From Nannocystis pusilla (lineage in GTDB: Bacteria; Myxococcota_A; Polyangia; Nannocystales; Nannocystaceae), in NCBI RefSeq assembly GCF_049060185.1, contig NZ_JBMEQO010000002.1: a stretch of DNA of 64,000 nt; one strand, written 5' to 3'. Positions 1 to 58,286 of the stretch are shown piece by piece. A model generated the notes under the pieces. It was not told where the DNA came from. It saw nothing but the letters and a program-made list of their open reading frames with translations, and searched no databases. Position numbers and translations under genes: made by a program. Each line of letters begins with the position of its first letter. Positions within the stretch are counted from its first letter, which is position 1.

Positions 1-950
1 GCATGTGGGCCCCGTTCTTGCTGCTGGTGTGCCGGCTGTTCCAGGGCCTCTCGGTCGGCGGCGAGTACGGCACCACCGCCACGTACATGAGCGAGGTCGC
101 CCTCCAGGGCCGGCGCGGCTTCTTCTCCTCGTTCCAGTACGTCACGCTGATCGGCGGCCAGCTGCTCGCGGTGCTCACGCTCGTGGTGCTCGAACACCTG
201 CTGAGCGAGGCCGAGCTCAAGGCCTGGGGCTGGCGGATCCCCTTCGTCCTCGGCGCGGTCGCGGCGGTGGTCGCCCTGCTGCTCCGCCGCACCCTGCACG
301 AGACCCAGAGCGCCGCGGCCAAGGCCGACGCCGAGGCCGGCAGCGTGGCCGGCCTGCTCCGTCACCACCGCGCCGCGTTCCTGACGGTGCTCGGCTACAC
401 CGCCGGCGGCTCGCTGTTCTTCTACACGTTCACCACGTACATGCAGAAGTACCTGGTCAACACGGTCCACCTGCCGATCCGGACCGCCAGCTACGTGATG
501 ACCGGCGCGCTGTTCGTCTACATGTGCATGCAGCCGGCCTTCGGCGCGCTGTCGGACCGGATCGGCCGACGCACCTGCATGCTGCTGTTCGGCAGCCTCG
601 GCGCGGTGGCCACGGTGCCGATCCTGACCGCCCTGCAGCGCACCACCAGCCCGGTGACCGCCTTCTTGCTTATTCTCGCCGCGCTGTCGATCGTGAGCCT
701 CTACACCTCGATCAGCGGCATCGTCAAAGCCGAGATGTTCCCGCCGGAGGTGCGCGCGCTCGGGGTCGGCCTCGCCTACGCGGTGGCGAACGCGATCTTC
801 GGCGGCTCGGCCGAGTACGTCGCCCTTGCCCTCAAGTCACTCGGCCACGAGACGTCGTTCTTCTGGTACGTGAGCGCGATGATGGTCCTCACCACCCTCG
901 TCAGCCTGCGCCTGCCGCGGCATCCGAGCTACCTGCAGCACGATCCGTGA
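1..950 (+). CDS. MFS transporter, metabolite:H+ symporter family (KgtP/ProP-like), C-terminal part; 5' end lies outside the window
   Basis: ORF 3..950 translates to about 10 TM helices with MHS-family motifs (…[20 protein letters not shown]…, …[20 protein letters not shown]…). It runs off the left edge of the window. Confidence 0.8.
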
Positions 951-974
951 AGCGCGCCGCCGAGCGCGGCGAAT

Positions 975-1045
975 CACATGTCTCTCGGGACAGCCTCGCG
1001 CGACATCGTCCGCGTCGATCCATGCCTGTCCCCGAGAACAGGTCG
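975..1045. repeat. GGACATGTCC-family palindromic repeat cluster
   Basis: CACATGTCTCTCGGGACAGCC…CATGCCTGTCCCCGAGAACAGG. This is an internally inverted version of the 21-nt core GACATGTCCCGAGAGACAGCC seen at 28997. It is intergenic, lying after the MFS stop. Confidence 0.6.
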
Positions 1046-2129
1046 ATCCTCGTCTCCCGCATCGACCCGTCTCCAGGCGCAGGTCGGTCCTCTTGCTCCA
1101 TCCCCCGCGACATCGTCGGCCGCACCAGACCCATCGGCCCGGCGCGTGCGTGCTCTACCGCTGCATGCACCGCCGAGATTTTGCCCTCGGGCTCGTCGCC
1201 GCCGGCGCCTGGGCTTGCGGCGAGCGCCCCACCTCCGCGCCGCCCCTCCTCGCCGCGCGCTCGCGCCCGAGCCCGAGCCCGAGCTCCCCGCGCCCGGTCC
1301 GCCCCCGCCGCCGGTCGCAACTGCGGCCCTCGGCCCGCCCCTCATTACTCGCGCTGCCCTCGACGCCCGCGCCGACGAATTGCGCGAGCGCCACGCCGGC
1401 CGCGGCTTCACCGTCCTCGTCGAGCCGCCCTTCGTCGTCCTCGGCGACGAGTCGCCCGCCGACGTCCAGCGGCGGGCCGATCGCACGATTCACTGGTCGG
1501 TGCTGCGGCTCAAGCAGGACTACTTCGCCCGCGACCCGGCGCGCATCATCGACGTGTATCTGTTCGCCGACCGCGCCAGCTACGGCCGCAACACCCGCGA
1601 GTTGTTCGGCGAGGAGCCAGACACCCCCTATGGCTATTACTCGCCGCGGCACGCCGCCCTGATCATGAACATCGGCACCGGCGGCGGCACCCTCGTCCAC
1701 GAGATCGTCCATCCGTTCATGGCCGCCAACTTCCCCGCCTGCCCCGCCTGGTTCAACGAGGGCCTCGCCTCGCTCTACGAGCAGTGCGGCGAGCACGGCG
1801 GCCGGATCGTCGGCTACCCCAATTGGCGCCTGCCGCACCTGCAGGCCGCCATCCGGTCCCGACGCCTGCGCTCGTTCGCCGAGCTGTGCGCCACCGACTC
1901 CGACGAGTTCTACGGCGCGCGCTCCGGCCTCAATTACGCCCAGGCCCGCTACCTCTGCTATTATTTACAGGAGCAGGATCGCCTGCGCGACTACTATCAT
2001 GCCTTCGTCGCCGGCGCCGACCTCGATCCCGGCGGCTACGCCACCCTGCAGAAGCTCGTCGGCCACCGCGACATGCCCCGCTTCGAGCGCGAGTGGCGGC
2101 GCTTCGTCCTCGACCTGCAGTGGAGCTGA
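978..2129 (+). CDS. Secreted zinc metallopeptidase-like protein (HEIVH … NEGLASLYE, peptidase MA-like); lipoprotein signal in a different frame, so an apparent frameshift
   Basis: The ORF frame carries HExxH plus a downstream NEGLA-x-x-E, the third-ligand motif typical of MA-clan peptidases. A lipobox signal MHRRDFALGLVAAGAWAC starts at 1165 in the +1 frame relative to the catalytic domain. This implies an indel between 1165 and about 1330. Confidence 0.55.
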   Translation: MSLGTASRDIVRVDPCLSPRTGRSSSPASTRLQAQVGPLAPSPATSSAAPDPSARRVRALPLHAPPRFCPRARRRRRLGLRRAPHLRAAPPRRALAPEPEPELPAPGPPPPPVATAALGPPLITRAALDARADELRERHAGRGFTVLVEPPFVVLGDESPADVQRRADRTIHWSVLRLKQDYFARDPARIIDVYLFADRASYGRNTRELFGEEPDTPYGYYSPRHAALIMNIGTGGGTLVHEIVHPFMAANFPACPAWFNEGLASLYEQCGEHGGRIVGYPNWRLPHLQAAIRSRRLRSFAELCATDSDEFYGARSGLNYAQARYLCYYLQEQDRLRDYYHAFVAGADLDPGGYATLQKLVGHRDMPRFEREWRRFVLDLQWS

Positions 2130-2138
2130 GCCGGGCGG

Positions 2139-3257
2139 CTACAGCCCGGCCGCCGCCGCCACCGCCGCCGTCGTCGCCTTGATCACGTCGGTCGCGAACG
2201 CGCGGTCGAGCGTGTCCGGAGTGTCGAGCCCGACCGTGCAGTGATACGCCGGGTTGCGGAACACCCCGGTGTCGAACACGTGCAGCGCCGGCAGGCCGCG
2301 CTCCCAGGCTGCGGTGGTCCGACATGCTCAGCACCCCGAACGCGTCGTCGTCGAGCTTCTCCGCGTCCGTCAGCGTCATCACCCCCGTCAGCCGGCCGAG
2401 GCGCTCCGCCTGCGCCTCCAGCTCGAGCGCGAACGGCTCGGCGGACGCGTCGGCGACCACCGCGATGAAGTCGGCACGGCCCTTGTTCGCCGTCAGCTCG
2501 TCGGCCAGCCCGGGGAACCGCTCCGCCAGCGGCCCCGGGAAGATCTGCGAGTGCTCCGCCGCGCTCGCGTAGCCGATCATGTCGAAGTTGAACGCCACCG
2601 CCAGCTTCGCGCCCGTGAACGACTGCGCGAACGCCCGCGAGCCGCGCAGCCCCAGCTCTTCCTCGTCCCAGCAGGCCACCATCAGCGTGCGCGGCAGCCT
2701 CGCCTGCCCGAGCACGCGCGCCACCTCGAGCGCCCCGGCCACCCCGCTCGCGTTGTCGTCGGCGCCGGGGCAGCCGCTGACGTGATCGTAGTGGGCTGCC
2801 AGCAGCACCACCTCGGACACCGCCGCGGTGCCCTCGCGCGTCCCGATCACGTTGATCCCGGAGCCGTAGTCCTGGCGCTGCACCACGAAGCCCGCCTGCT
2901 CGAGCTCCGCCGCGCAGCGGTCCTGCACCTTCTGCCAGTGGATCGATCCGGGCGGCCGCGGCTGGGCCATGAACGCGACGTCCTCGGCCCAGCGAACCGG
3001 GTCGACGCAATCCATCAGCGCCTCCGGGCTGTCGTGGCCGCAGAGGGACGCGATCCCGACGTCGGGCCCCGGCCCCGTGGTCGTCGGCGCCGCCGTCGTC
3101 CCGCCCGAGCTGCTCGAGCTGCTGGTCCCGCCGGGCGCGCCCGTCTCCGCCGCACCGCTCGTCGTCGTCGCCGCGTCGCTCTCGCCGCTCGTCGCCGGCG
3201 ACGGCACGCACCGAGCCCGAGCCACAACACCCCGACCGCACCGCGGACCGCTCGCAT
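2139..3257 (-). CDS. M28-family zinc aminopeptidase lipoprotein; disrupted by about 2 frameshifts
   Basis: AHYDHVSGCPGADDNASGVAGALEVARVL and EEELGLRGSRAF are M28 hallmarks. The true C-terminus (…WERGLPALHVFDTGVFRNPAYHCTVGLDTPDTLDRAFATDVIKATTAAVAAAAGL*) is in another frame, ending at 2139. The lipobox signal MRAVRGAVGVLWLGLGAC (ATG at 3257) is also out of frame with the Thr/Ser-rich linker. Confidence 0.7.
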
Positions 3258-3292
3258 CGCCGTCACTATAGCACCGGCCCGACCCCTCGCCG

Positions 3293-3775
3293 GTGGATCG
3301 CCCGCCGCCGATCGCTTATGACCGGCGTCATGGCCCACCCCTCACCGAACTCACAGGCTCATGGACCGGCCCCGCGCGCACCTGGCTCGACCCGACTGGC
3401 GGCGAGCCGGACGTCGGCGACTGGCGCGTCCAGATCGAGTCGCTGCTCGACGGCCGCTACGCGCGCCTCCGCTACGACGGCGTGTGCACCGGCAAGCTGC
3501 ACCACGGCGAGATGACCCTCGGCGTCGACGACCACGAGCACACCCTGTACTGGATCGACACCTTCCACACCGGCGCCTCCCCTGTGGTCGATCGGGCCCG
3601 CGGGCCCGCCGTCTCGGTCCTCGGCAGCTACCGCGCCGGCGACCAGCGCTGGGGCTGGCGCACCGCCTTCCGCCGCGACGGCGACGAGCTCGTGATCGAG
3701 GCCACCAACATCGAGCCGAGCGGCGAGGAGACGCGCGCCATCGAGGTCCGCCTCGTCCGCGTCGCGGCTGCCTGA
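3293..3775 (+). CDS. Hypothetical protein (about 160 aa)
   Basis: Clean ORF with coding-like composition (…WRVQIESLLDGRYARLRYDGVCTGKLHHGEMTLGVDDHEHTLYWIDTFHTG…). I recognise no named domain. Confidence 0.45.
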   Translation: MDRPPPIAYDRRHGPPLTELTGSWTGPARTWLDPTGGEPDVGDWRVQIESLLDGRYARLRYDGVCTGKLHHGEMTLGVDDHEHTLYWIDTFHTGASPVVDRARGPAVSVLGSYRAGDQRWGWRTAFRRDGDELVIEATNIEPSGEETRAIEVRLVRVAAA

Positions 3776-3790
3776 TCGACCATGCTCCTC

Positions 3791-3845
3791 GGGACATGCC
3801 CGTTCGGCCATGCCCGCACGGACATGTCCCTCACGGACAGGCGAC
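3791..3845. repeat. GGACATGTCC-family repeat, 14-bp periodic (3 to 4 units)
   Basis: GGGACATGCCCGTTCGGC CATGCCCGCACGGA CATGTCCCTCACGGACAGG. It lies between the convergent gene ends 3775 and 3831. Confidence 0.7.
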
Positions 3846-4983
3846 TATCTGCACGTCGTAGCTGAACGGCTGCGGCACCCCGTTCACCGCCACCGTGTAG
3901 GTCTTGCCGGCCTCCGAGGTCCAGCCCTGCGGTGTCATGGCGATCGCGCTGGCCGAGCCGAACCCGCCCATGAGCGCCGTCGTCTTGACCGGCCGGTCGA
4001 CCCCGCCCTCGCTGATCGTCACCTGCGCCGCGCCGAGGTCGATCGCATCGCTCTGGATCGTCCAGCCCGTCTCGTCGACGTCGGACCACGGCACCTCGGG
4101 CACGTGGATCGCGTCGATCGGCACCACCCGGGCGGCGGCCAGGCCGTCCACGCCGCGTCGCCGCCGCCCTGCCCGCCGATCACCCACATGCACGAGTTGA
4201 CGGCCGTCGATCCGAGCCCGACCGGCCCGAGCCCGTTCGAGAGGATCCACCGCCGGTGGCCGAAGGTCGTCGCATTGCCGGGGTCGACCATGTAGAGGTC
4301 GACCGCGACCACGCCCGGCGTCGACGAGATGTTGCTGTTCTTCGCCGCCTGCGCCCGTCGGCGCTGTAGCAGTCCCACTGCATCGGCGGGTCGTGCGACA
4401 GCTGCCCGTTGGCGTGCATCATCAGCGCGCACTGCTGCGCCTTGGCATTGAGCCCCGCGTCGTGCCCGACCGCCGGCAGCCCGGCCAGCCAGCGGTACAG
4501 GTTGATCAGCCTGAGCGCGTTGTCGCGGCCCGGCGCGCCCGTGTCGCCCGCCTGACAGCCGGCGACCGCCCCGCTCCATGTCCCTTCGGACATGTCCGCA
4601 CGGTCCGCCGTCCAGCGCGCGCACCTCCGCCGCCGGATCGATCGGCTCGCCGGTGGTGGTGATGTCGCCGGTGGTGGTCGTCGAAGCCGCGCTGGACGTC
4701 CCGCTCCCGGTCGGACCTGGCCCCGAGGACACCTCGTCCGGGCCCGTGGTCGTCGTGCCCGCGACGCTCGTGCTCGTCGGCTCCCCGCGGTCGACGCCTC
4801 GCTGGTGCCCGGCGCGCTCGCATCGCTGGTCCCCGGTCCGGTGCTCGCCGCGCTCGCGCCGGTGCTCGTCGCCTCGCTCGCGGTCTCGGGCATACCGATG
4901 CTCTCGGTCACCTCCGCGACGCCCGAATAGCAGCCGACGACGAGCACGGACATTGATGCGAGGACGACGCGAGAGGGCAGCAT
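3831..4983 (-). CDS. CAP/SCP/PR-1 domain lipoprotein with Ser/Thr-rich linker; at least 3 frameshifts
   Basis: Lipobox signal MLPSRVVLASMSVLVVGC. CAP-domain motifs (…NALRLINLYRWLAGLPAV…, …TTFGHRRWILSNGLGP…) are spread over three overlapping ORF fragments (4180..4983, 4019..4732, 3831..4250). Confidence 0.6.
4576..4606. repeat. GGACATGTCC-family repeat (2 units) inside the linker region of the CAP lipoprotein gene
   Basis: CCATGTCCCTTCGGACATGTCCGCACGG. It lies between the Thr/Ser-rich linker and the CAP domain and coincides with a frame change. Confidence 0.6.
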
Positions 4984-20848: not shown

Positions 20849-20903
20849 GTACCTGTCCCCGCGTACCTGTCCCCGAGTACCTGTCCCCGACAACCTGCCC
20901 CGA
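20849..20903. repeat. 14-bp tandem repeat x4 (TACCTGTCCCCGNG) between gcvT and gcvH
   Basis: TACCTGTCCCCGCG / TACCTGTCCCCGAG / TACCTGTCCCCGAC / AACCTGCCCCGAAG. It ends 9 nt before the gcvH ATG. Confidence 0.8.
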
Positions 20904-28761: not shown

Positions 28762-29665
28762 TGGTCCCGCTGTTCGGCCACGGCAAGCTCGCCACCGTGG
28801 CCGCCGCCTGGACCACCGCGCGCGCCGGCGTCATGACCACCCTCGTCGTCGCCGGTGCCACCACCGTCGTCGCGGTCGCCCCCGCCAGGCCCCGGGCCGG
28901 GCCACCGCCGCGCACGTCGAGGACCTGTCCGCAAAGCCAGCTGGCTCTCGTTCCAGCGGTGACATGCCTCGAGAGACTGCCGCGCCATCGCCCGCCGACA
29001 TGTCCCGAGAGACAGCCTCTCTTCCGCCCGACGACATGTCCCGAGAGACAGCCTCTCTCTCGCATTGTCATGTCTCGAGAGACCGCCTCGCCTCCGTCCG
29101 CCGACCTGTCTCGAAAGACAGCCCCGCCCCAGCCCGCCGGCACGTCGCGAGAAACAGCCGCGCCCCGCCCGACGCTGCCGGCCCGCAGCGGCCGCCCGCC
29201 CCGCCTCCCCGTTCTCGTTCTCCCACCTCCGCGCGCGGGTCTCTGCCCTCTGGACCCGCATCCCCTGTCGCCGGGCCCCGCGGCCGACCTGTCCCCGAGG
29301 ACAGCCTCTCCCGCGCCCGTCACCCGCCCTGCCTACGAGCAGCTGCTGTCCCGAGAGACATCCGCGCGCGCCCCGCCCGCGACGACCTCGCCCTCGAGGT
29401 CGGCCTCCTCGACCGCGCCCGCGCCCGCCTCGACGCCCGCGACCCGGCAGGCGCCGCCCAGCTCCTCGACGCCCACGCGCGCCAGTTCCCGCGCGGCGCC
29501 CTCGTCGACGCCCGCGAGGCTGCCGCTGTCGAGCTCCTGTGCCTGCAAGGCCGTCCCACCGACGCCGCGACCGCCGCCCAGCGCCTGGCCGCGCGCCTGC
29601 CCGACTCGGTGCTCGCCCGCCGCTTCGAGCGCTTCGTCTGCCCCGACGACGACGAGCCGCGCTGA
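28761..29665 (+). CDS. Membrane-anchored putative anti-sigma factor; the linker is occupied by a 36-bp tandem-repeat array
   Basis: ATG overlaps the sigma stop (TGATG). TM helix …GVMTTLVVAGATTVVAVAP…. C-terminal domain …DLALEVGLLDRARARLDARDPAGAAQLLDAHARQFPRGALVDAREAAAVELLCLQGRPTDA… in another frame. Confidence 0.5.
28921..29370. repeat. 36-bp tandem-repeat array (about 5 good units at 28961..29143, then degenerate units to about 29370)
   Basis: Units: GACATGCCTCGAGAGACTGCCGCGCCATCGCCCGCC / GACATGTCCCGAGAGACAGCCTCTCTTCCGCCCGAC / GACATGTCCCGAGAGACAGCCTCTCTCTCGCATTGT / CATGTCTCGAGAGACCGCCTCGCCTCCGTCCGCC / GACCTGTCTCGAAAGACAGCCCCGCCCCAGCC…. Further copies at 29287 (GACCTGTCCCCGAGGACAGCCTCTCC) and 29346. 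Confidence 0.85.
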
Positions 29666-31564: not shown

Positions 31565-31630
31565 GAGCATGCCCTCACGGCCATGTCCTGACAGACATGT
31601 CCCCGACGACATGTCGCCGGGGACATCCAG
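31565..31630. repeat. GGACATGTCC-family repeat cluster (about 5 units, 12 to 14-bp period)
   Basis: GAGCATGCCCTCACGGCCATGTCCTGACAGACATGTCCCCGACGACATGTCGCCGGGGACATCC. Intergenic. Confidence 0.75.
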
Positions 31631-43533: not shown

Positions 43534-43612
43534 AGGACATGTCCCGAGGGTCATGCCCCTTGCGCATGCCCGAGAGAACATGCCCCCGAGGTCATATCCC
43601 GAAGGACATATC
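43534..43612. repeat. GGACATGTCC-family repeat cluster (5 to 6 units) between convergent genes
   Basis: GGACATGTCCCGAGGGTCATGCCCCTTGCGCATGCCCGAGAGAACATGCCCCCGAGGTCATATCCCGAAGGACATATC. Confidence 0.8.
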
Positions 43613-46519: not shown

Positions 46520-46780
46520 CGCGCCGTCCCTCGCGCCGCATCGGTGCTTCGCCCGCGCTCCGCAGCCGTCGCCTCGCTCGATCGCGCCGCCCCACGTCAG
46601 TTCGTCGCCGTCCCTCGGTCGCGCCGCCTTACGTAACTCTTCGCCTCGCTCGCGCCGCCCCAGTCCGTCGCCCGCCCTCGCTTGCGCCGCCCCGGTCGGT
46701 CCGTCGCCCGCCCTCGCTCGCGCCGCCCCAGTCCGTCCGTCGCCCGCCCTCGCTCGCGCCGCCCCACGCCCCATGTCCCT
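46520..46780. repeat. 36–40-bp GC-rich tandem repeat array x7 (GTCGCCCGCCCTCGCTCGCGCCGCCCCAGTCCGTCC)
   Basis: Direct tandem copies. The best three lie at 46657..46770; more diverged copies lie upstream. No unique spacers. Confidence 0.8.
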
Positions 46781-46850
46781 CAGGACATGCCCATCCGGCC
46801 ATGCCCATCCCGACATGTCCGTTCCGACATGTCCTCTCGCCCTCTCGCGA
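46775..46850. repeat. 14-bp tandem repeat x5 (CATGYCCNTYCSGR)
   Basis: CATGTCCCTCAGGA / CATGCCCATCCGGC / CATGCCCATCCCGA / CATGTCCGTTCCGA / CATGTCCTCTCGCC. Confidence 0.85.
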
Positions 46851-46857
46851 GCCAGCC

Positions 46858-47662
46858 TCAGGGCACCAGGTACGGCAGCCCCGGCGGCGGCGTGTAGCCG
46901 GGCAGCTCGCCGAGCGTGAGCACGGCGCGGAGCACCTGCGTCGCGGCGAACATCGCCGCCGGCACCAGCGCGACCACGAACCCGCGGATCGCCGGGATCT
47001 GGTGCGTCCCCGTGAGCGCGTTGCCGGCGACCACGAACGTCAGCAGGGTCAGCGCCCCCAGCCCGCCGAGGTAGACCGGCAGCGTCAGCTGCCCCAGGTA
47101 CAGCGGCAGGTCGAGCAGCGCGACCCCCAGCAGCGCGGGCGCCAGGGCGTAGCCGGTGGCCCGCAGGGTCGCCGCGATCGAGCGCGGCGCCCCGCCGGTC
47201 AGCGCCAGGGCCACGTGGGTGGCGATCCCCAGGCTCGCGTAGAGCAGCGGCACCCCGACCGGCGCCATCAACAGCAGCCACAGCGACAGCGCCTCGACCA
47301 GGCGCGCGTCGAACAGCGGGATCCCCTCCTGGATCGCGGCTGTCGGGCCTGCAAGGCCCAGCGTCACCAGCAGCGCCGCCCACAGCGGCAATCTCACCGT
47401 CAGCAGCAGCCGCAGCGCCGCTGCGTGGTCGACTGGTTCATGGACGTGTTGAAAGCTCCGGCGCGGCCGCAGCAGCAGCGCCGCCAGCGAGCGACGCACC
47501 CGCCAGCCCCAGCCCGGCAGCGCCGCGGCCGACCCGCCTTCGGCCTCGCGCGGCCACTCCACCGGCAGCGCGCTCCACAGCGCGCCCGAGTCGGCCAGCA
47601 GCTCGCGACCCTTCGCTTCCTGGCGGACGCGCGCCGCGCTCGCTGTTCCGGGCTCAGCCATC
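46858..47662 (-). CDS. Yip1-domain family membrane protein
   Basis: Five TM helices in the C-terminal 180 aa. Start tentatively at Met MAEPGT…. Confidence 0.5.
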
Positions 47663-50789: not shown

Positions 50790-50858
50790 GGGACATGTCC
50801 TCCGAGACATGTCCCGACGCACCCTGCCGCCGGGACATGTCCTCCGCGACATGCGCCG
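50790..50858. repeat. GGACATGTCC-family repeat cluster (4 units): two GGACATGTCCTCCG-GACATG pairs
   Basis: GGGACATGTCCTCCGAGACATGTCCCGACGCACCCTGCCGCCGGGACATGTCCTCCGCGACATGCGCC. Confidence 0.85.
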
Positions 50859-51718: not shown

Positions 51719-52508
51719 ACCAGCCCGCGATGCTAGCGGGCCCAGCGCGCGGCGCCCGTCGCTTTCGCCGTCGCGCCCGTTGAGCCCACGGCGGCCCGCG
51801 CTTCCGTTTCGCGTAACCCGGAACCCCTGTCCCGGCGTCCGCGACGCCCCGCGAGGCGATCTCCCTGTCCCGAAGACCAGCTCGGCGCGCTGCCGCGCCC
51901 GCCCTTCGCGCCGCTCCACGCGCGTCTCCGCCCCGGCCCCGAAACGGCCCGCGGGCCGCTACAGGGGCCTATCTGCTCTTTCGCGCAGTTTTGCGCCGCG
52001 CGATTTGGTTTGTCTGCCTCTGATCAAGAGTTCAGGGCAGCCTCGGTGATCGCTGGACACTGATTGGGTGTTCAGTACAGATCCGATCCCATGCAACGCC
52101 GTCGCCGACTGCGGATCACCCCCACGCCGGTCCGTGGATACCGTCTCCGGACGACCCAGGTCTGCCGGACGTGGCGCCGCGGCCCGAGCCCGAACCGGAG
52201 CGCGCCCCGCCGGAGCCGAGTGGGCCGGATCTGCCCGCCCCGGTGCCACCGCGCGATCCCCGCGATTACCTCGGGGCGACCGTGGCCGAGCCGCACCTAT
52301 GGGCCGTCATGCGGACCCAGATCGACGCCGATCGCCGGAGGACGGCCGCTTTCGCGGCTGCGCGGCGACCGAACCGACCCCTGTTCGCCCCCGATTCACT
52401 CCTGTGACCGTCCTGTCGCCCGAAAATAAGCCCGCGCCGCTCACATCGGCGCGACTTGCCAGCGCAGCGCCGCCGGGTTACTTCCCGCCGCCGCCCAAAA
52501 CGGCGTCT

Positions 52509-54373
<1,865 letters not shown>

Positions 54374-54401
54374 GCCGACCTCCACCCTCGCCTGCGACGA
54401 A

Positions 54402-54438
54402 GCGCGACCCTCTTCCAAAGAGGGTCGCGCTTTCTTCG
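54402..54438 (+). terminator. Rho-independent terminator of typA
   Basis: GCGCGACCCTCTT-CCA-AAGAGGGTCGCGC gives a 13-bp stem. It is followed by TTTCTTCG, 29 bp after the stop. Confidence 0.7.
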
Positions 54439-54440
54439 CG

Positions 54441-54693
54441 CAGCGAGCGACGACAGTCATCGCAACGCAGCGCAGCGCATGACAGAGTCCTTCCCTCCGG
54501 AAGGCCGTTTTCGGGCTGCGAGCGACGCCCGCAACGCAGCCCAGCGCATGAATCGGCCTTCCGAAGGCCGTTCTTTTGGAGCTGCGAGCGACGCCCGCAA
54601 CGCAGCCCGGCGCATGACTCGGCCCTCTCGAAGGCCGCTTTTTCGAGCTGCGAGCGACGCGACGCAGCGGGGCGCATGACTGGCGTCCCGCGT
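54441..54693. repeat. About 66-bp tandem repeat x3.5, each unit with a small GC hairpin plus T-tract (terminator-like module)
   Basis: Unit: GCTGCGAGCGACGCCCGCAACGCAGCCCRGCGCATGAMTCGGCCYTCYGAAGGCCGYTYTTTTSGA (units at 54441, 54516, 54582, 54648). Confidence 0.8.
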
Positions 54694-54844
54694 CCCGCTG
54701 GCGCTGCGCCCCGCCCGCGAGCGCCTGGCCTCGCCGCTTGTGGCTCCTCGCGTGCCTCGCCGTGCGCCTTCGTCCCTGCCGTTGTATTGTCCATCGCAGA
54801 TGCTCGCTTCGCTCCCGTTCGCGCCGCGCCGTCGCTCGCAAGGC

Positions 54845-56149
54845 ATGGGTCGAAGCCTGGTGGTCCTCCTCGTCCTGCTCGCGGCCTGCCGACGCAGCGC
54901 CGAGACCACTGCTCCTGCCAGCGTCGACGCCCCTCAGGACAAGCCGACGAGCGAGCTGCGGCGGACCTACGACCTCCCGGCCGCCGACGCTCCCTGGACC
55001 GCGCAGGATTATCAAAGAGCCCGCGACGCCTTCGTCCGCCTCGAGCGCGAGCGCCCCGAGCTGCTGCCGCGGCTCGACGGACCAGACGCCGAATGGCTCC
55101 GGCGCCTCGTCGCCCTCGACGGCATCGAAGCCGCCGTCCGGAGCACCGCCGGCCCCGACGAGCTCACCGCCCTGCACCTCGCCCTCGCCGACATCCTGCA
55201 GCTCTACGCCGCCCGGGCGCTCTCGCGCGGCGAATACGGGCACGAGTACCTCGCCGTCGCCGCCGCCTTTTTCAAAGAGTCCGCCCTGCGCGTCGACCGG
55301 CTCGCCGGCGACGACGCCTCTCGCCGCACCTTCGTCGAGGCCCGCTTTCACCTCGCGCGCGGCGTTCACGACGTCCTCGCCAGCGCCCTCTCCCTCCCGG
55401 ACACCATCGATCCCGCCGCCGCGGTCGCCACCCTCGGCCCGCTCCGCGACCTCGTCGCCCCGTGGTTCCTCCCCGAGGAACGCGACCGGATCCTCGACCT
55501 CGCCGATCGCCTCGCCGCCGTCGACGTCCCCGCCACCGAGCTCGCCGCGCTGCGCACCGCCTTCGCCCCCGATCGCGAGCCTCACCCGCGCGTCGACGCC
55601 CTCGCCGAAGAGCTCCGCGAGCACCTCGATCAGCAGGAGGCCGTGCTCGCCGCGGTCGCGGCCGGGGCGCTCCAGCCGGTCGAGGTCGGGCGCGAGGGCT
55701 CGCAGGTCCGCTGGGCCTTCCCCGACGTCGGCTTCTCTGCCGCCTTCCCCCGGCGGCCCAACGCGCAGCGCCAGAGCTTCACCACCGCCGACGGCGTGGC
55801 CATGACCACCCGCATGCTCGCGCTCAAGCAGCCCGGCGACGTCTCGCGGCTCGTCACCTGCAGCGCGCGCGCCAGGCCGATCGCCGGGCGCACGCCCGCC
55901 GACGAGCTGCGCGGCATCGCCGACACCATGCACCTCCAGGGCGTGCGTGCGATCGACGTCGACGGCACCGCCGGCCTCGAGGGCACGCTCACCACCGACA
56001 AGGCCCACGGCCTCGTCCGCGTCGTCACCGTCGCCGACGCCACCTGCGTGATCGTCGGCGAGGTCCCGCGAGCGCAGGCCCGCGAGCACGCCGACGAGCT
56101 GCGCCGCTTCGTCGATTCGTTCCGCCCGGGCTCCGCCAGCGGCCGCTGA
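54845..56149 (+). CDS. Hypothetical lipoprotein (alpha-helical N-domain, alpha/beta C-domain)
   Basis: Lipobox MGRSLVVLLVLLAAC. Intact 434-aa ORF. Confidence 0.55.
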   Translation: MGRSLVVLLVLLAACRRSAETTAPASVDAPQDKPTSELRRTYDLPAADAPWTAQDYQRARDAFVRLERERPELLPRLDGPDAEWLRRLVALDGIEAAVRSTAGPDELTALHLALADILQLYAARALSRGEYGHEYLAVAAAFFKESALRVDRLAGDDASRRTFVEARFHLARGVHDVLASALSLPDTIDPAAAVATLGPLRDLVAPWFLPEERDRILDLADRLAAVDVPATELAALRTAFAPDREPHPRVDALAEELREHLDQQEAVLAAVAAGALQPVEVGREGSQVRWAFPDVGFSAAFPRRPNAQRQSFTTADGVAMTTRMLALKQPGDVSRLVTCSARARPIAGRTPADELRGIADTMHLQGVRAIDVDGTAGLEGTLTTDKAHGLVRVVTVADATCVIVGEVPRAQAREHADELRRFVDSFRPGSASGR

Positions 56150-56182
56150 CCGGCCCGCCCCGCCGCTCGATCGTGGCCTCGA

Positions 56183-56232
56183 AGACATGCCCTCTCAAGC
56201 ATGTCCGAAAGACCATGTTCGATAGGACATAC
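56183..56232. repeat. GGACATGTCC-family repeat cluster (4 units)
   Basis: AAGACATGCCCTCTCAAGCATGTCCGAAAGACCATGTTCGATAGGACATACC. Confidence 0.7.
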
Positions 56233-56350
56233 CGGCCGTCGCCGCAACACATCCATGTCCTCGTTCTGCTCGCACCGCCGTCCGAGCGCGGACGCCTGCG
56301 CGTGGTGTCCTCAGGACTTCGCGCCATTCGCGCATGGCTCACATTTAATT

Positions 56351-56379
56351 TTGACAGCGCAGTCAAGAACGCTTAGCTT
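56351..56379 (+). promoter_or_regulatory. Candidate sigma-70-type promoter (TTGACA-17-TAGCTT) with an overlapping palindromic operator TTGAC-N6-GTCAA; implies leaderless tetR mRNA
   Basis: ACATTTAATTTTGACAGCGCAGTCAAGAACGCTTAGCTTTCCATCCATG. The -10 element ends 7 nt before the ATG at 56387. Confidence 0.4.
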
Positions 56380-56386
56380 TCCATCC

Positions 56387-57040
56387 ATGCCCCGGCCACG
56401 CGAGTTCGATCGAGACGAGGCCATCGAGCGGGCCATGGCCGTGTTCTGGGAGCACGGCTACGACGGCACCTCGACCGATCAGCTCCTCCAGGCCATGGGC
56501 ATCGGCCGCCAGAGCATGTACGCCGCCTTCGGCGACAAGCACGGCCTCTACCTCGCCGCGCTGGAGCGCTACCAGGCGCGTCAGGGCGCCGACCTGCTGG
56601 AGCGGCTGCGGGCGGTGTCCTCCCCGCTGGGCGCGATCGAGGACATCCTGCTCGGCGTGGCCGGAGACACCGCCGAGGGGCGTTCGCGCGGCTGTTTCGG
56701 CATCCAGTCGATCATCGAGATGGCCGGGCGCGACCCCGAGGTCGTGACCCTGGCCCGCAGCGCCACTGCCCTGTGCGAGGCCGCCTTCGAGCGCATGGTC
56801 GCCGAGGCCAAACGCCGCGACGAGGTCGGCGCGCACGTCGACGAGCGCAGCGCCGGCCGCTTCCTCCTCTCCACCCTGCAGGGCCTGCGGGTCAGCGCTC
56901 GCACGGGCGCCACGCCCGAGGCCCTGCGGGCCGTCGCCGGCTTCGCCATCGCCGCCCTCCGGCCGCGCCGCCCGCCGCAAGTTCTTGACTCCATGGTCCA
57001 CAACCCTACCGCTCGCGGCAGCCAGCGACGCACCGCGTGA
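56387..57040 (+). CDS. TetR/AcrR-family transcriptional regulator
   Basis: HTH motif …FWEHGYDGTSTDQLLQAMGIGRQSMYAAFGDKHGLY…. Confidence 0.8.
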   Translation: MPRPREFDRDEAIERAMAVFWEHGYDGTSTDQLLQAMGIGRQSMYAAFGDKHGLYLAALERYQARQGADLLERLRAVSSPLGAIEDILLGVAGDTAEGRSRGCFGIQSIIEMAGRDPEVVTLARSATALCEAAFERMVAEAKRRDEVGAHVDERSAGRFLLSTLQGLRVSARTGATPEALRAVAGFAIAALRPRRPPQVLDSMVHNPTARGSQRRTA

Positions 57041-57200
57041 GCGGCCCGTCGTCGACTGCATCGTCTAAAAACTCACCGCTCGCGACAGCCCGCGACGGAC
57101 CGCATGCGCGGCGTCGTCGACTGCATCCTCCACAACCCACCGTTCGTGACAGTCGACGCCCACCGCCTCGGGCGGCCGTCGTCGACAGGAGTGATTCGTC

Positions 57201-58286
57201 ATGTCTCTCGATCAGTACTACCTGCTCGGCCGCTCCGGCCTGCGCGTCAGCCCCTTCGCGCTCGGCACCTTGACCTTCGGCACCGACGGCCCGTACGGCG
57301 CCTGGGGCTCGAGCAAGCAGGCCGCGCGCGCCGTGTTCGACCGCTACCTCGCGGCCGGCGGCAACTTCATCGACACCGCCGATCTGTACACCCGCGGCAC
57401 CAGCGAGTCGCTGCTCGGCGAGTTCATCGCCGACGGCAACCGCGATCGCCTCGTGCTCACCAGCAAGTACAGCTACAACCTCGCCGAGCGCGACCCCAAC
57501 GCCGGCGGCAACGGGCGCAAGAACATGATCCGCGCGCTCGAGGCCTCGCTGAAGCGCCTGCGGACCGACTACCTCGATCTCTACCTGCTTCACACCTGGG
57601 ACCGGATCACCCCCGCCGAGGAGGTCGTGCGCGCCTTCGACGACCTCGTGCGCGCCGGCAAGATCCGCTACGCCGGCCTGTCCGACGTCCCCGCCTGGTA
57701 CGCCGCGCGGGCCCACACCTACGCCGAGGCCCACGCCCTCGCGCCGATCGTCAACCTGCAGCTGCAGTACTCGCTGGTCGAGCGCGGCATCGAGGCCGAG
57801 TTCACCTCGCTCGCCACCAACCTCGGCATGGGCATCACCGCCTGGAGTCCGCTCGCCAGCGGCCTCCTGTCGGGCAAGTACCGGCCCAACAGCGACGGCG
57901 GCAGCGGCCGGCTCAGCACCGGCACCGGCAAGTCGCTCAGCCTCTTCACCGAGCGCAACTGGCAGATCGTCGGCGCGCTCGAGGCCGTCGCCGCCGAGCT
58001 CGGGCGCAGCATGGCCCAGGTCGCGCTGCAGTGGGTGCTCACGCGTCCGGGCGTCACCTCGGTGATCCTCGGCGCCACGCGGCCCGAGCAGCTCGAGGAC
58101 AACCTCGGCGCGCTCGACCTCCGGATCCCGCCCGAGCTGCTGCGCCGCCTCGACGAGGCCAGCACGCCGCCCCTCACCACCCCGTACGCGATGTTCGGCG
58201 ACCGCTACCAGGCCGCAGTGCACGGCGCCGCAGTCAGCGATCGCCCGCCCGCCTTTGCCCCGCCGGTCCGCGTCAGCCTCGGCTGA
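57201..58286 (+). CDS. Aldo/keto reductase (AKR family oxidoreductase)
   Basis: Intact. AGGAG SD 8 nt upstream. …GTLTFGTD…, …NFIDTADLYTRGTSE…, …IRYAGLSDVPAW…. Confidence 0.85.
   Translation: MSLDQYYLLGRSGLRVSPFALGTLTFGTDGPYGAWGSSKQAARAVFDRYLAAGGNFIDTADLYTRGTSESLLGEFIADGNRDRLVLTSKYSYNLAERDPNAGGNGRKNMIRALEASLKRLRTDYLDLYLLHTWDRITPAEEVVRAFDDLVRAGKIRYAGLSDVPAWYAARAHTYAEAHALAPIVNLQLQYSLVERGIEAEFTSLATNLGMGITAWSPLASGLLSGKYRPNSDGGSGRLSTGTGKSLSLFTERNWQIVGALEAVAAELGRSMAQVALQWVLTRPGVTSVILGATRPEQLEDNLGALDLRIPPELLRRLDEASTPPLTTPYAMFGDRYQAAVHGAAVSDRPPAFAPPVRVSLG

Follow-up and report, generated by a model that had tools for sequence, protein, structure and literature searches.

Bacterial intergenic VNTRs, tandem transcription terminators and the enterobacterial REP/BIME sequences are the described systems that come closest to the repeat reported here. 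MIRUs constitute an interspersed family present at dozens of loci, often with mini-ORFs that are coupled to the flanking genes. Enterobacterial REP/BIME sequences are hairpin repeats, often found several in a row 3' of genes, which can stabilize the upstream mRNA or weakly terminate transcription; BIMEs occur as hundreds of dispersed copies in alternating orientation and without T-runs. Most of the catalogued tandem terminators are pairs of unrelated hairpins. In the WebGeSTer DB, tandem ('U-shaped') terminators account for 100,364 of 1.23 million predictions (PMC3013805). Our search of the literature yielded nothing specific on Nannocystis tandem repeats or on terminator minisatellites.

The locus analyzed in this work is the non-coding spacer that separates typA from a predicted lipoprotein gene in 64,000 nucleotides of DNA (hereafter the window) from a member of the Nannocystis pusilla group. 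We consider it likely that the array of repeats in this spacer is a lineage-specific tandem repeat of variable copy number (a minisatellite or VNTR), in which a weak secondary terminator has been duplicated, and that it is probably near-neutral.

The typA terminator and the units behind it

The features of the region are as follows.

52509–54373, + strand: typA, for the translational GTPase TypA/BipA; a 1-nt deletion near 53523 interrupts the gene in the window
54400–54438, + strand: primary typA intrinsic terminator; a perfect 15-bp stem with a 3-nt loop, then TTTCTT
54441–54515, + strand: unit c0, 75 bp, diverged; core CGCAACGCAGCGCAGCGCATGA; hairpin B at 54489–54494 / 54499–54504, then GTTTTC
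54516–54581, + strand: unit c1, 66 bp, interior type; hairpin A GGCTGCG...CGCAGCC; hairpin B at 54554–54570 (7 bp, loop of 3), then TTCTTTT
54582–54647, + strand: unit c2, 66 bp, last full unit; weak hairpin B at 54620–54637 (5 bp, loop of 8), then CTTTTTC
54648–54682, + strand: unit c3, truncated; first half only (CTGCGAGCGACGCGACGCAGCGGGGCGCATGACTG), without hairpin B and without T-run
54770–54799, + strand: conserved block ending in ...GTCCCTGCCGTTGTATTGTCCATCGCAG, just before the lipoprotein start codon
54800–56149, + strand: predicted lipoprotein of 449 aa, with a signal peptide ending in the lipobox LAAC and no Pfam domain

The typA reading frame ends with a stop codon at 54371–54373, and the reconstructed TypA protein of 621 aa is 99% identical to TypA of Nannocystis sp. 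ILAH1. The terminator begins 26 nt past the end of the gene as an inverted repeat with arms at 54400–54414 and 54418–54432. It folds at −30.2 kcal/mol (z = −4.6), a value that was matched by no shuffle, and a scan of all 64 kb revealed that it possesses by far the longest stem among the terminator-like sites. The same terminator, with the tail TTTTTCT, is kept in seven loci of the Nannocystis lineage, from four named species/strains and two metagenomic contigs. The typA terminator is thus very strong and conserved.

The array spans 54441–54682, directly 3' of this terminator, and comprises four units: a diverged one of 75 bp, two of 66 bp and, last, a truncated one. Tandem Repeats Finder (TRF) reported it at 54493–54660 with a period of 66, 2.6 copies, 86% matches and a score of 246. 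A 22-nt core, CGCRACGCAGCNNNGCGCATGA, occurs four times (at 54461, 54530, 54596 and 54658) against a chance expectation of 0.03. Unit borders were set by cutting at the recurrent CWGCGAGCGACG, that is at 54441, 54516, 54582 and 54648. The sequence-only reading had described 3.5 copies of a 66-bp unit, which is a fair count of units measuring 75, 66 and 66 bp plus a truncated one. The units are head-to-tail direct repeats whose length falls within the 10–100 bp of VNTR units. The array is not a CRISPR array: the repeat takes up the entire 66-bp unit, which leaves no unique spacers.

A full unit consists of hairpin A (GCTGCG...CGCAGC), a single-stranded region containing GCGCATGA, and hairpin B with its T-run; the core GCGCATGA is the best-conserved stretch across all four copies. 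Hairpin B of c0 is CCTTCC-CTCC-GGAAGG, with 6 bp and −8.4 kcal/mol; that of c1 is CGGCCTT-CCG-AAGGCCG, with 5 GC pairs in its 7-bp stem and −12.4 kcal/mol; and that of c2 pairs GGCC with GGCC across 8 nt, at about −8.4 kcal/mol. Among these three, the c1 hairpin alone beat its shuffled controls (z = −2.5). Folded as a whole, unit c1 gave −29 kcal/mol with z = −2.6, and unit c2 gave z = +0.3. In the array of a second N. pusilla assembly (GCA_049337375.1, L079), hairpin B energies ranged unit by unit from −6.4 to −10.9 kcal/mol, and the last full unit contains GAAGACCG, a stem mismatch that disrupts hairpin B. Overall, hairpin B ranges from about −6 to −12 kcal/mol and is mostly no better than shuffled sequence.

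The unit hairpins nevertheless have the form of intrinsic-terminator hairpins (GC-rich, stem of about 5–14 bp, small loop), c2 weakly so, and each is followed on its 3' side by a U-rich tract, given above for the window and represented in L079 by TTCTTTTT and CTTTTTTT. T-richness after hairpin B is kept in every full unit despite a genome of 72% GC; the exact sequence of the T-run differs. That a canonical terminator is followed downstream of typA by tandem, weak terminator-like modules, as had been proposed from the letters alone, is borne out by the inverted repeat, by TRF and by the folds, and the hairpins proved as weak as anticipated. The proposal that every copy carries a hairpin and a T-tract holds for the three units c0–c2; it fails for the last half unit, c3.

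Variation among relatives and quality of the assembly

The content of the spacer in the window and in related genomes is listed below.

Window, Nannocystis of the pusilla group: c0, two full units and a truncated unit, i.e. 3.5 copies
L079, N. pusilla GCA_049337375.1: array at the orthologous site, with c0, four units of 67/68/67/68 bp and the matching truncated end
L001/L002, ILAH1-like strains: about 1.6 units, decayed and with no convincing hairpin B; TypA 99% identical
L080, N. pusilla CP185339.1: a single unit
L085, metagenomic relative: about half a unit
L084, metagenomic relative: no units
L081 and L086, N. exedens and N. punicea: no units
L003–L005, relatives with TypA 86–90% identical: the gene order itself is different

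In L079, TRF reported a period of 67 with 5.0 copies and 91% matches, for a copy count of 5–5.5. Since this independent N. pusilla assembly carries the array at the same position, the array is not an assembly artefact. Alignment of the units paired the first unit of the window with the first of L079 (win_c0 with pus_c0), the last full units with each other (win_c2 with pus_c4) and the two truncated ends together, while win_c1 resembled pus_c1–c3. The edge units are therefore orthologous, and the copy-number difference is confined to the interior unit, which is present once in the window versus three times in L079. Copy number hence differs among related strains at an orthologous locus, as it does at VNTRs, a polymorphism that rests on the two genomes which carry the array (n = 2). 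The sequence-only reading had held that absence of the unit elsewhere, together with lack of conservation in relatives, would speak against it; this is largely what was observed, the array being shared, with another copy number, by one close relative only.

Across the relatives the typA–lipoprotein spacer varies from 129 to 573 bp. Conserved throughout are the strong terminator and ~50 bp right before the lipoprotein start codon; the block at 54770–54799 is kept in the window, L001, L079, L080, L084 and L085, and the rest of the spacer is variable. Conservation of the motif CTGCGAGCGACGA, immediately 3' of the typA terminator, extends to N. exedens. Within the repeat, the unit alignment revealed that the first half is the best-conserved part, and it is the sole part kept in the truncated last copy.

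The lipoprotein is 93% identical to its ILAH1 counterpart and 92% to that of N. pusilla, and homologs were found solely in Nannocystis genomes and unnamed metagenomic contigs. Its start codon is fixed by relatives that lack the second ATG; genes for a TetR-family regulator and an aldo/keto reductase follow in that order. Directly before the ATG, the consensus of the conserved block is GCCGTTGTAT(T/C)GTCCATCGCAG, and the ~50 bp contain no Shine-Dalgarno sequence. The block probably holds the lipoprotein promoter or its −10 region, which would place the array upstream of it, and a −10-like TAT(T/C)GT within the block may give rise to a nearly leaderless mRNA. In a separate observation, the TGCGAGCGACG of the units (54517–54527, 54583–54593 and 54649–54659) was found to be an 11-nt perfect complement of lipoprotein codons 10–14 (54830–54840). 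We considered antisense pairing between the units and the lipoprotein mRNA and rejected it: the motif in the gene is also present in L084, which has no units, and encodes the conserved PRRRSQ. The complementarity is probably a coincidence.

The window assembly calls for caution. Its typA is split into two ORFs, 52068–53765 and 53132–54373, by a frameshift that reads GGGC-AGTGG versus GGGCAAGTGG in L079 and corresponds to a single A lost at about 53523 (within 53515–53530). Every difference in A/T-run length between the window and L079 over 52140–54740 is a deletion in the window, with under-length runs at 52140, 52480, 54417, 54431, 54508, 54574, 54644 and 54740. Compared with each of the relatives, the T-runs of the window consistently fall short by 1–2 nt, and by as much as 5 nt after c0; the T-run of the terminator tail is TTT in the window versus TTTTT in all seven relatives. 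This pattern suggests homopolymer under-calling in the window assembly and not a real typA pseudogene. The true T-tracts are probably longer and the true unit 67–68 bp; longer T-tracts would in turn make the units better terminators. In the complete N. pusilla genome CP185339.1 (L080, positions 1–4300), a long-read assembly, the gene calls include no upstream typA and give the lipoprotein in two pieces of 351 aa and 73 aa, which suggests indel errors there as well. The under-calling and the typA frameshift together are a practical warning to users of the window assembly.

Origin of the array and its possible roles

The preferred account of the array as a young minisatellite begins with a segment of ~66–68 bp just 3' of the typA terminator, which would have been duplicated head to tail. 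The founding segment presumably contained the GC-rich hairpin A, the core GCGCATGA and the small hairpin B with its T-run, and would thus have formed an intrinsic terminator, weak and secondary to the main one. Later gain or loss of the interior unit presumably involved slipped-strand mispairing or unequal recombination from one repeat to another. The full units have the architecture of Rho-independent terminators oriented like typA, and are predicted to act as such; a polymerase that escaped the main terminator would meet three more weak terminators in the window, or five in N. pusilla (L079), before it reached the probable lipoprotein promoter. Judged from this model, the units probably add redundant termination, which would be a by-product of what was duplicated rather than a selected function. 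An earlier suggestion that the repeat is a duplicated 3' UTR element was essentially right, in that it is a tandem duplicate of a segment 3' of typA.

Because the edges are orthologous, the interior count is variable and the array is absent step by step among relatives, we regard it as a young, locus-specific minisatellite and not a conserved functional RNA. The array is also probably dispensable and near neutral, since the main terminator is very strong, sister lineages do without the array and the last full unit has a hairpin B that is either weak (window) or broken by a mismatch (L079). The T-richness retained in the full units could reflect selection instead of neutrality.

That last observation bears on the strongest alternative, in which the array was selected as a set of fail-safe terminators: the typA terminator leaks, read-through into the lipoprotein, TetR and aldo-keto-reductase genes is harmful, and copy number sets the degree of insulation. 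A protective role for the lipoprotein gene had been put forward in the sequence-only reading and is mechanistically plausible. From three (window) to five (L079) hairpin-plus-T-run modules are co-oriented, T-richness is kept though the tract sequences change, our reading of the list of terminator-like sites places contiguous T-runs of at least 4 at few sites in the 64-kb window, and tandem terminators are a recognized class (WebGeSTer DB, PMC3013805). However, no sign of need or selection emerged. The primary terminator, at −30 kcal/mol, is already strong and is conserved; sister lineages with the same gene order have 0–1.6 units and depend on that terminator alone; and the hairpin B of the last full unit (the c2 type) is weak or disrupted in both array genomes. 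Compensatory double changes were seen at 0 of 15 base pairs, a count to which eight very similar units lend little power. Taken together, we judge a selected fail-safe array to be unlikely. A variant in which the array is a copy-number-tunable insulator, each unit cutting read-through from the highly expressed typA further and recombinational gain or loss of units setting basal expression of the lipoprotein, TetR and aldo-keto-reductase genes differently among strains or subpopulations, so that the 'terminator VNTR' acts as a slow rheostat, appears quite unlikely to us. Were copy number to tune read-through, the locus would exemplify modular terminator dosage in nature; none of the present observations calls for this.

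We give very little credence to a small-RNA locus, in which each unit would yield a 3'-UTR-derived sRNA made of hairpin A, the single-stranded GCGCAUGA region and a U-tailed terminator hairpin. Two hairpins and a U-tail do resemble a typical bacterial sRNA, and the core GCGCATGA is the part best conserved in all four copies. Against this, a search of Rfam 15 with 53800–57600 at E ≤ 10 returned no family match, with only sub-threshold chance hits to miRNA models (E ≥ 0.29), and no sigma-70-like promoter was identified in the array of either the window or L079. A 66-bp unit is too small to contain its own promoter, the array sits behind a strong terminator, and it is missing in strains whose TypA is 99% identical. 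The lack of compensatory changes described above points the same way, with the same small power. The proposal of a small-RNA locus made in the earlier reading accordingly found no support.

A DNA-level regulatory array is similarly improbable to a high degree. In this reading a regulator would bind at phased sites formed by the unit's first half (GCGAGCGACG...CGCAACGCAGC), or copy number would shift the spacing upstream of the lipoprotein promoter as a slow, phase-variation-like switch. The conservation of CTGCGAGCGACGA to N. exedens, the retention of the first half of the unit alone in the truncated copy, where it is also the best-conserved part, and the position of the units upstream of a conserved promoter-proximal block are all consistent with such a role. 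However, neither a regulator nor a binding consensus is known, more than 100 bp separate the nearest copy from the conserved block, which lies downstream of it, and strains without the array retain the lipoprotein gene. Moreover, the motif is GC-rich and codon-like, with chance occurrences at 47487 (forward) and 61254 (reverse).

The chances are slimmer again that the unit belongs to a family of dispersed repeats (REP/BIME-, MITE- or MIRU-like) and is in tandem here by chance. It is reminiscent of REP/BIME and MIRU elements in its size, in its hairpins and in lying at a gene's 3' end. However, BLAST and a covariance model, the latter built from 8 full units, turned up no further locus, either across the 64-kb window or among ~71 kb of related Nannocystis loci, so that additional copies, for which the earlier reading had suggested a BLAST search of the genome, are lacking outside the spacer across these sequences. 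The covariance model matched the array itself (c3 = 26.8 bits) and gave weak matches (E of 0.02–0.7) in the typA terminator region of relatives; the latter were rejected as homologs, being matches to a generic hairpin-plus-T-run shape. A scan of 185,579 species-representative genomes with the core pattern returned 39 single chance matches, none of them in Nannocystis. Because the scan gave no Nannocystis match, the array-bearing genomes are not among the representatives; the set includes neither the source genome nor the array-bearing N. pusilla assembly. With a unit-junction pattern, metagenomes gave 34 single matches of pattern length, for which BLAST showed no similarity past the pattern, and BLAST against plasmid and phage collections gave no match. 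Within the window, the related loci and the public collections searched, the multiple dispersed copies of an interspersed family were thus not found. In addition, inspection of the array flanks showed no evident terminal inverted repeats or target-site duplications, and the neighboring 67-bp array described below is unrelated (45 of 500 shuffles reach the alignment score).

Finally, a small protein of 22-residue repeats encoded by the 66-codon ORF at 54479–54679 has virtually no probability: the ORF is present and 66 bp is a multiple of three, yet its GC3 is 63% without codon periodicity versus 92–96% in the lipoprotein, TetR and aldo/keto-reductase genes, the 67/68-bp units of L079 destroy a common frame and leave stop codons in every frame, and the 66-bp period itself is possibly due to under-called T-runs, so that GC3 and the frame loss in L079 effectively refute a coding role.

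Neighboring repeats and comparison with known systems

Other tandem arrays were observed in the window. The spacer between the TetR and aldo/keto reductase genes, 2.4 kb downstream, contains a second array (window 56997–57186, L079 5335–5571, L080 5227–5451) with a period of 65–67 bp and no T-runs, present in 2.9 copies in the window, 3.7 in L079 and 3.5 in L080. A relationship between the two 66/67-bp arrays was considered and dismissed as not significant on the shuffle result given above. Given its place between a TetR gene and the gene that follows, a repeated operator or promoter element is conceivable as the role of the second array. Because it too is strain-variable, tandem arrays seem to be a general habit of these genomes. 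Two arrays with 36-bp units are located at 28961–29171 and 46567–46768, with about 5.9 and 5.8 copies, the first built around GACATGTC(C/T)CGAGAGACAGCC; large-unit tandem arrays (period of at least 36 bp) amount to about one per 16 kb in the window. Short arrays with a 14-bp period were located at 3792–3839, 20849–20903, 31582–31619, 43585–43612, 46771–46831 and 50792–50853. Their core, (G)ACATG(T/C)CC, as in GACATGTCCCCGA, recurs many times across the window and was likewise seen in L001 (8614–8668) and L084 (2767–2909); it may represent a binding site or a family of small repeats.

The typA array has little significance beyond annotation. It illustrates the multiplication of a weak terminator by simple tandem duplication, and its copy number is a candidate marker for strain typing. 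The range of spacer lengths and the variability of the second array nearby speak of fast intergenic evolution in Nannocystis.

The array resembles bacterial intergenic VNTRs, e.g. the MIRU-VNTR loci of M. tuberculosis, in having a head-to-tail unit of 40–100 bp in an intergenic position of a high-GC bacterium. As at MIRU-VNTR loci, copy number varies among close strains, and the interior units are homogenized while the edges are decayed. Unlike the MIRUs, with which it was compared by description, the typA array was found at one locus and has no conserved frame. With the tandem terminators of WebGeSTer and with rrnB T1-T2 it shares the presence of more than one hairpin, with or without a U-trail, within ≤50 nt in tandem and oriented with the gene (PMC3013805). 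It differs from them in that its extra hairpins are mutual copies produced by recent duplication and vary in number among strains, and in that their termination is predicted only. The REP/BIME sequences are likewise hairpin-forming repeats in a row just 3' of a gene; in contrast to these, the typA unit is strictly direct, carries a T-run and was found at one locus. The typA array is hence a further, ordinary instance of an intergenic VNTR, one whose unit is a weak intrinsic terminator.
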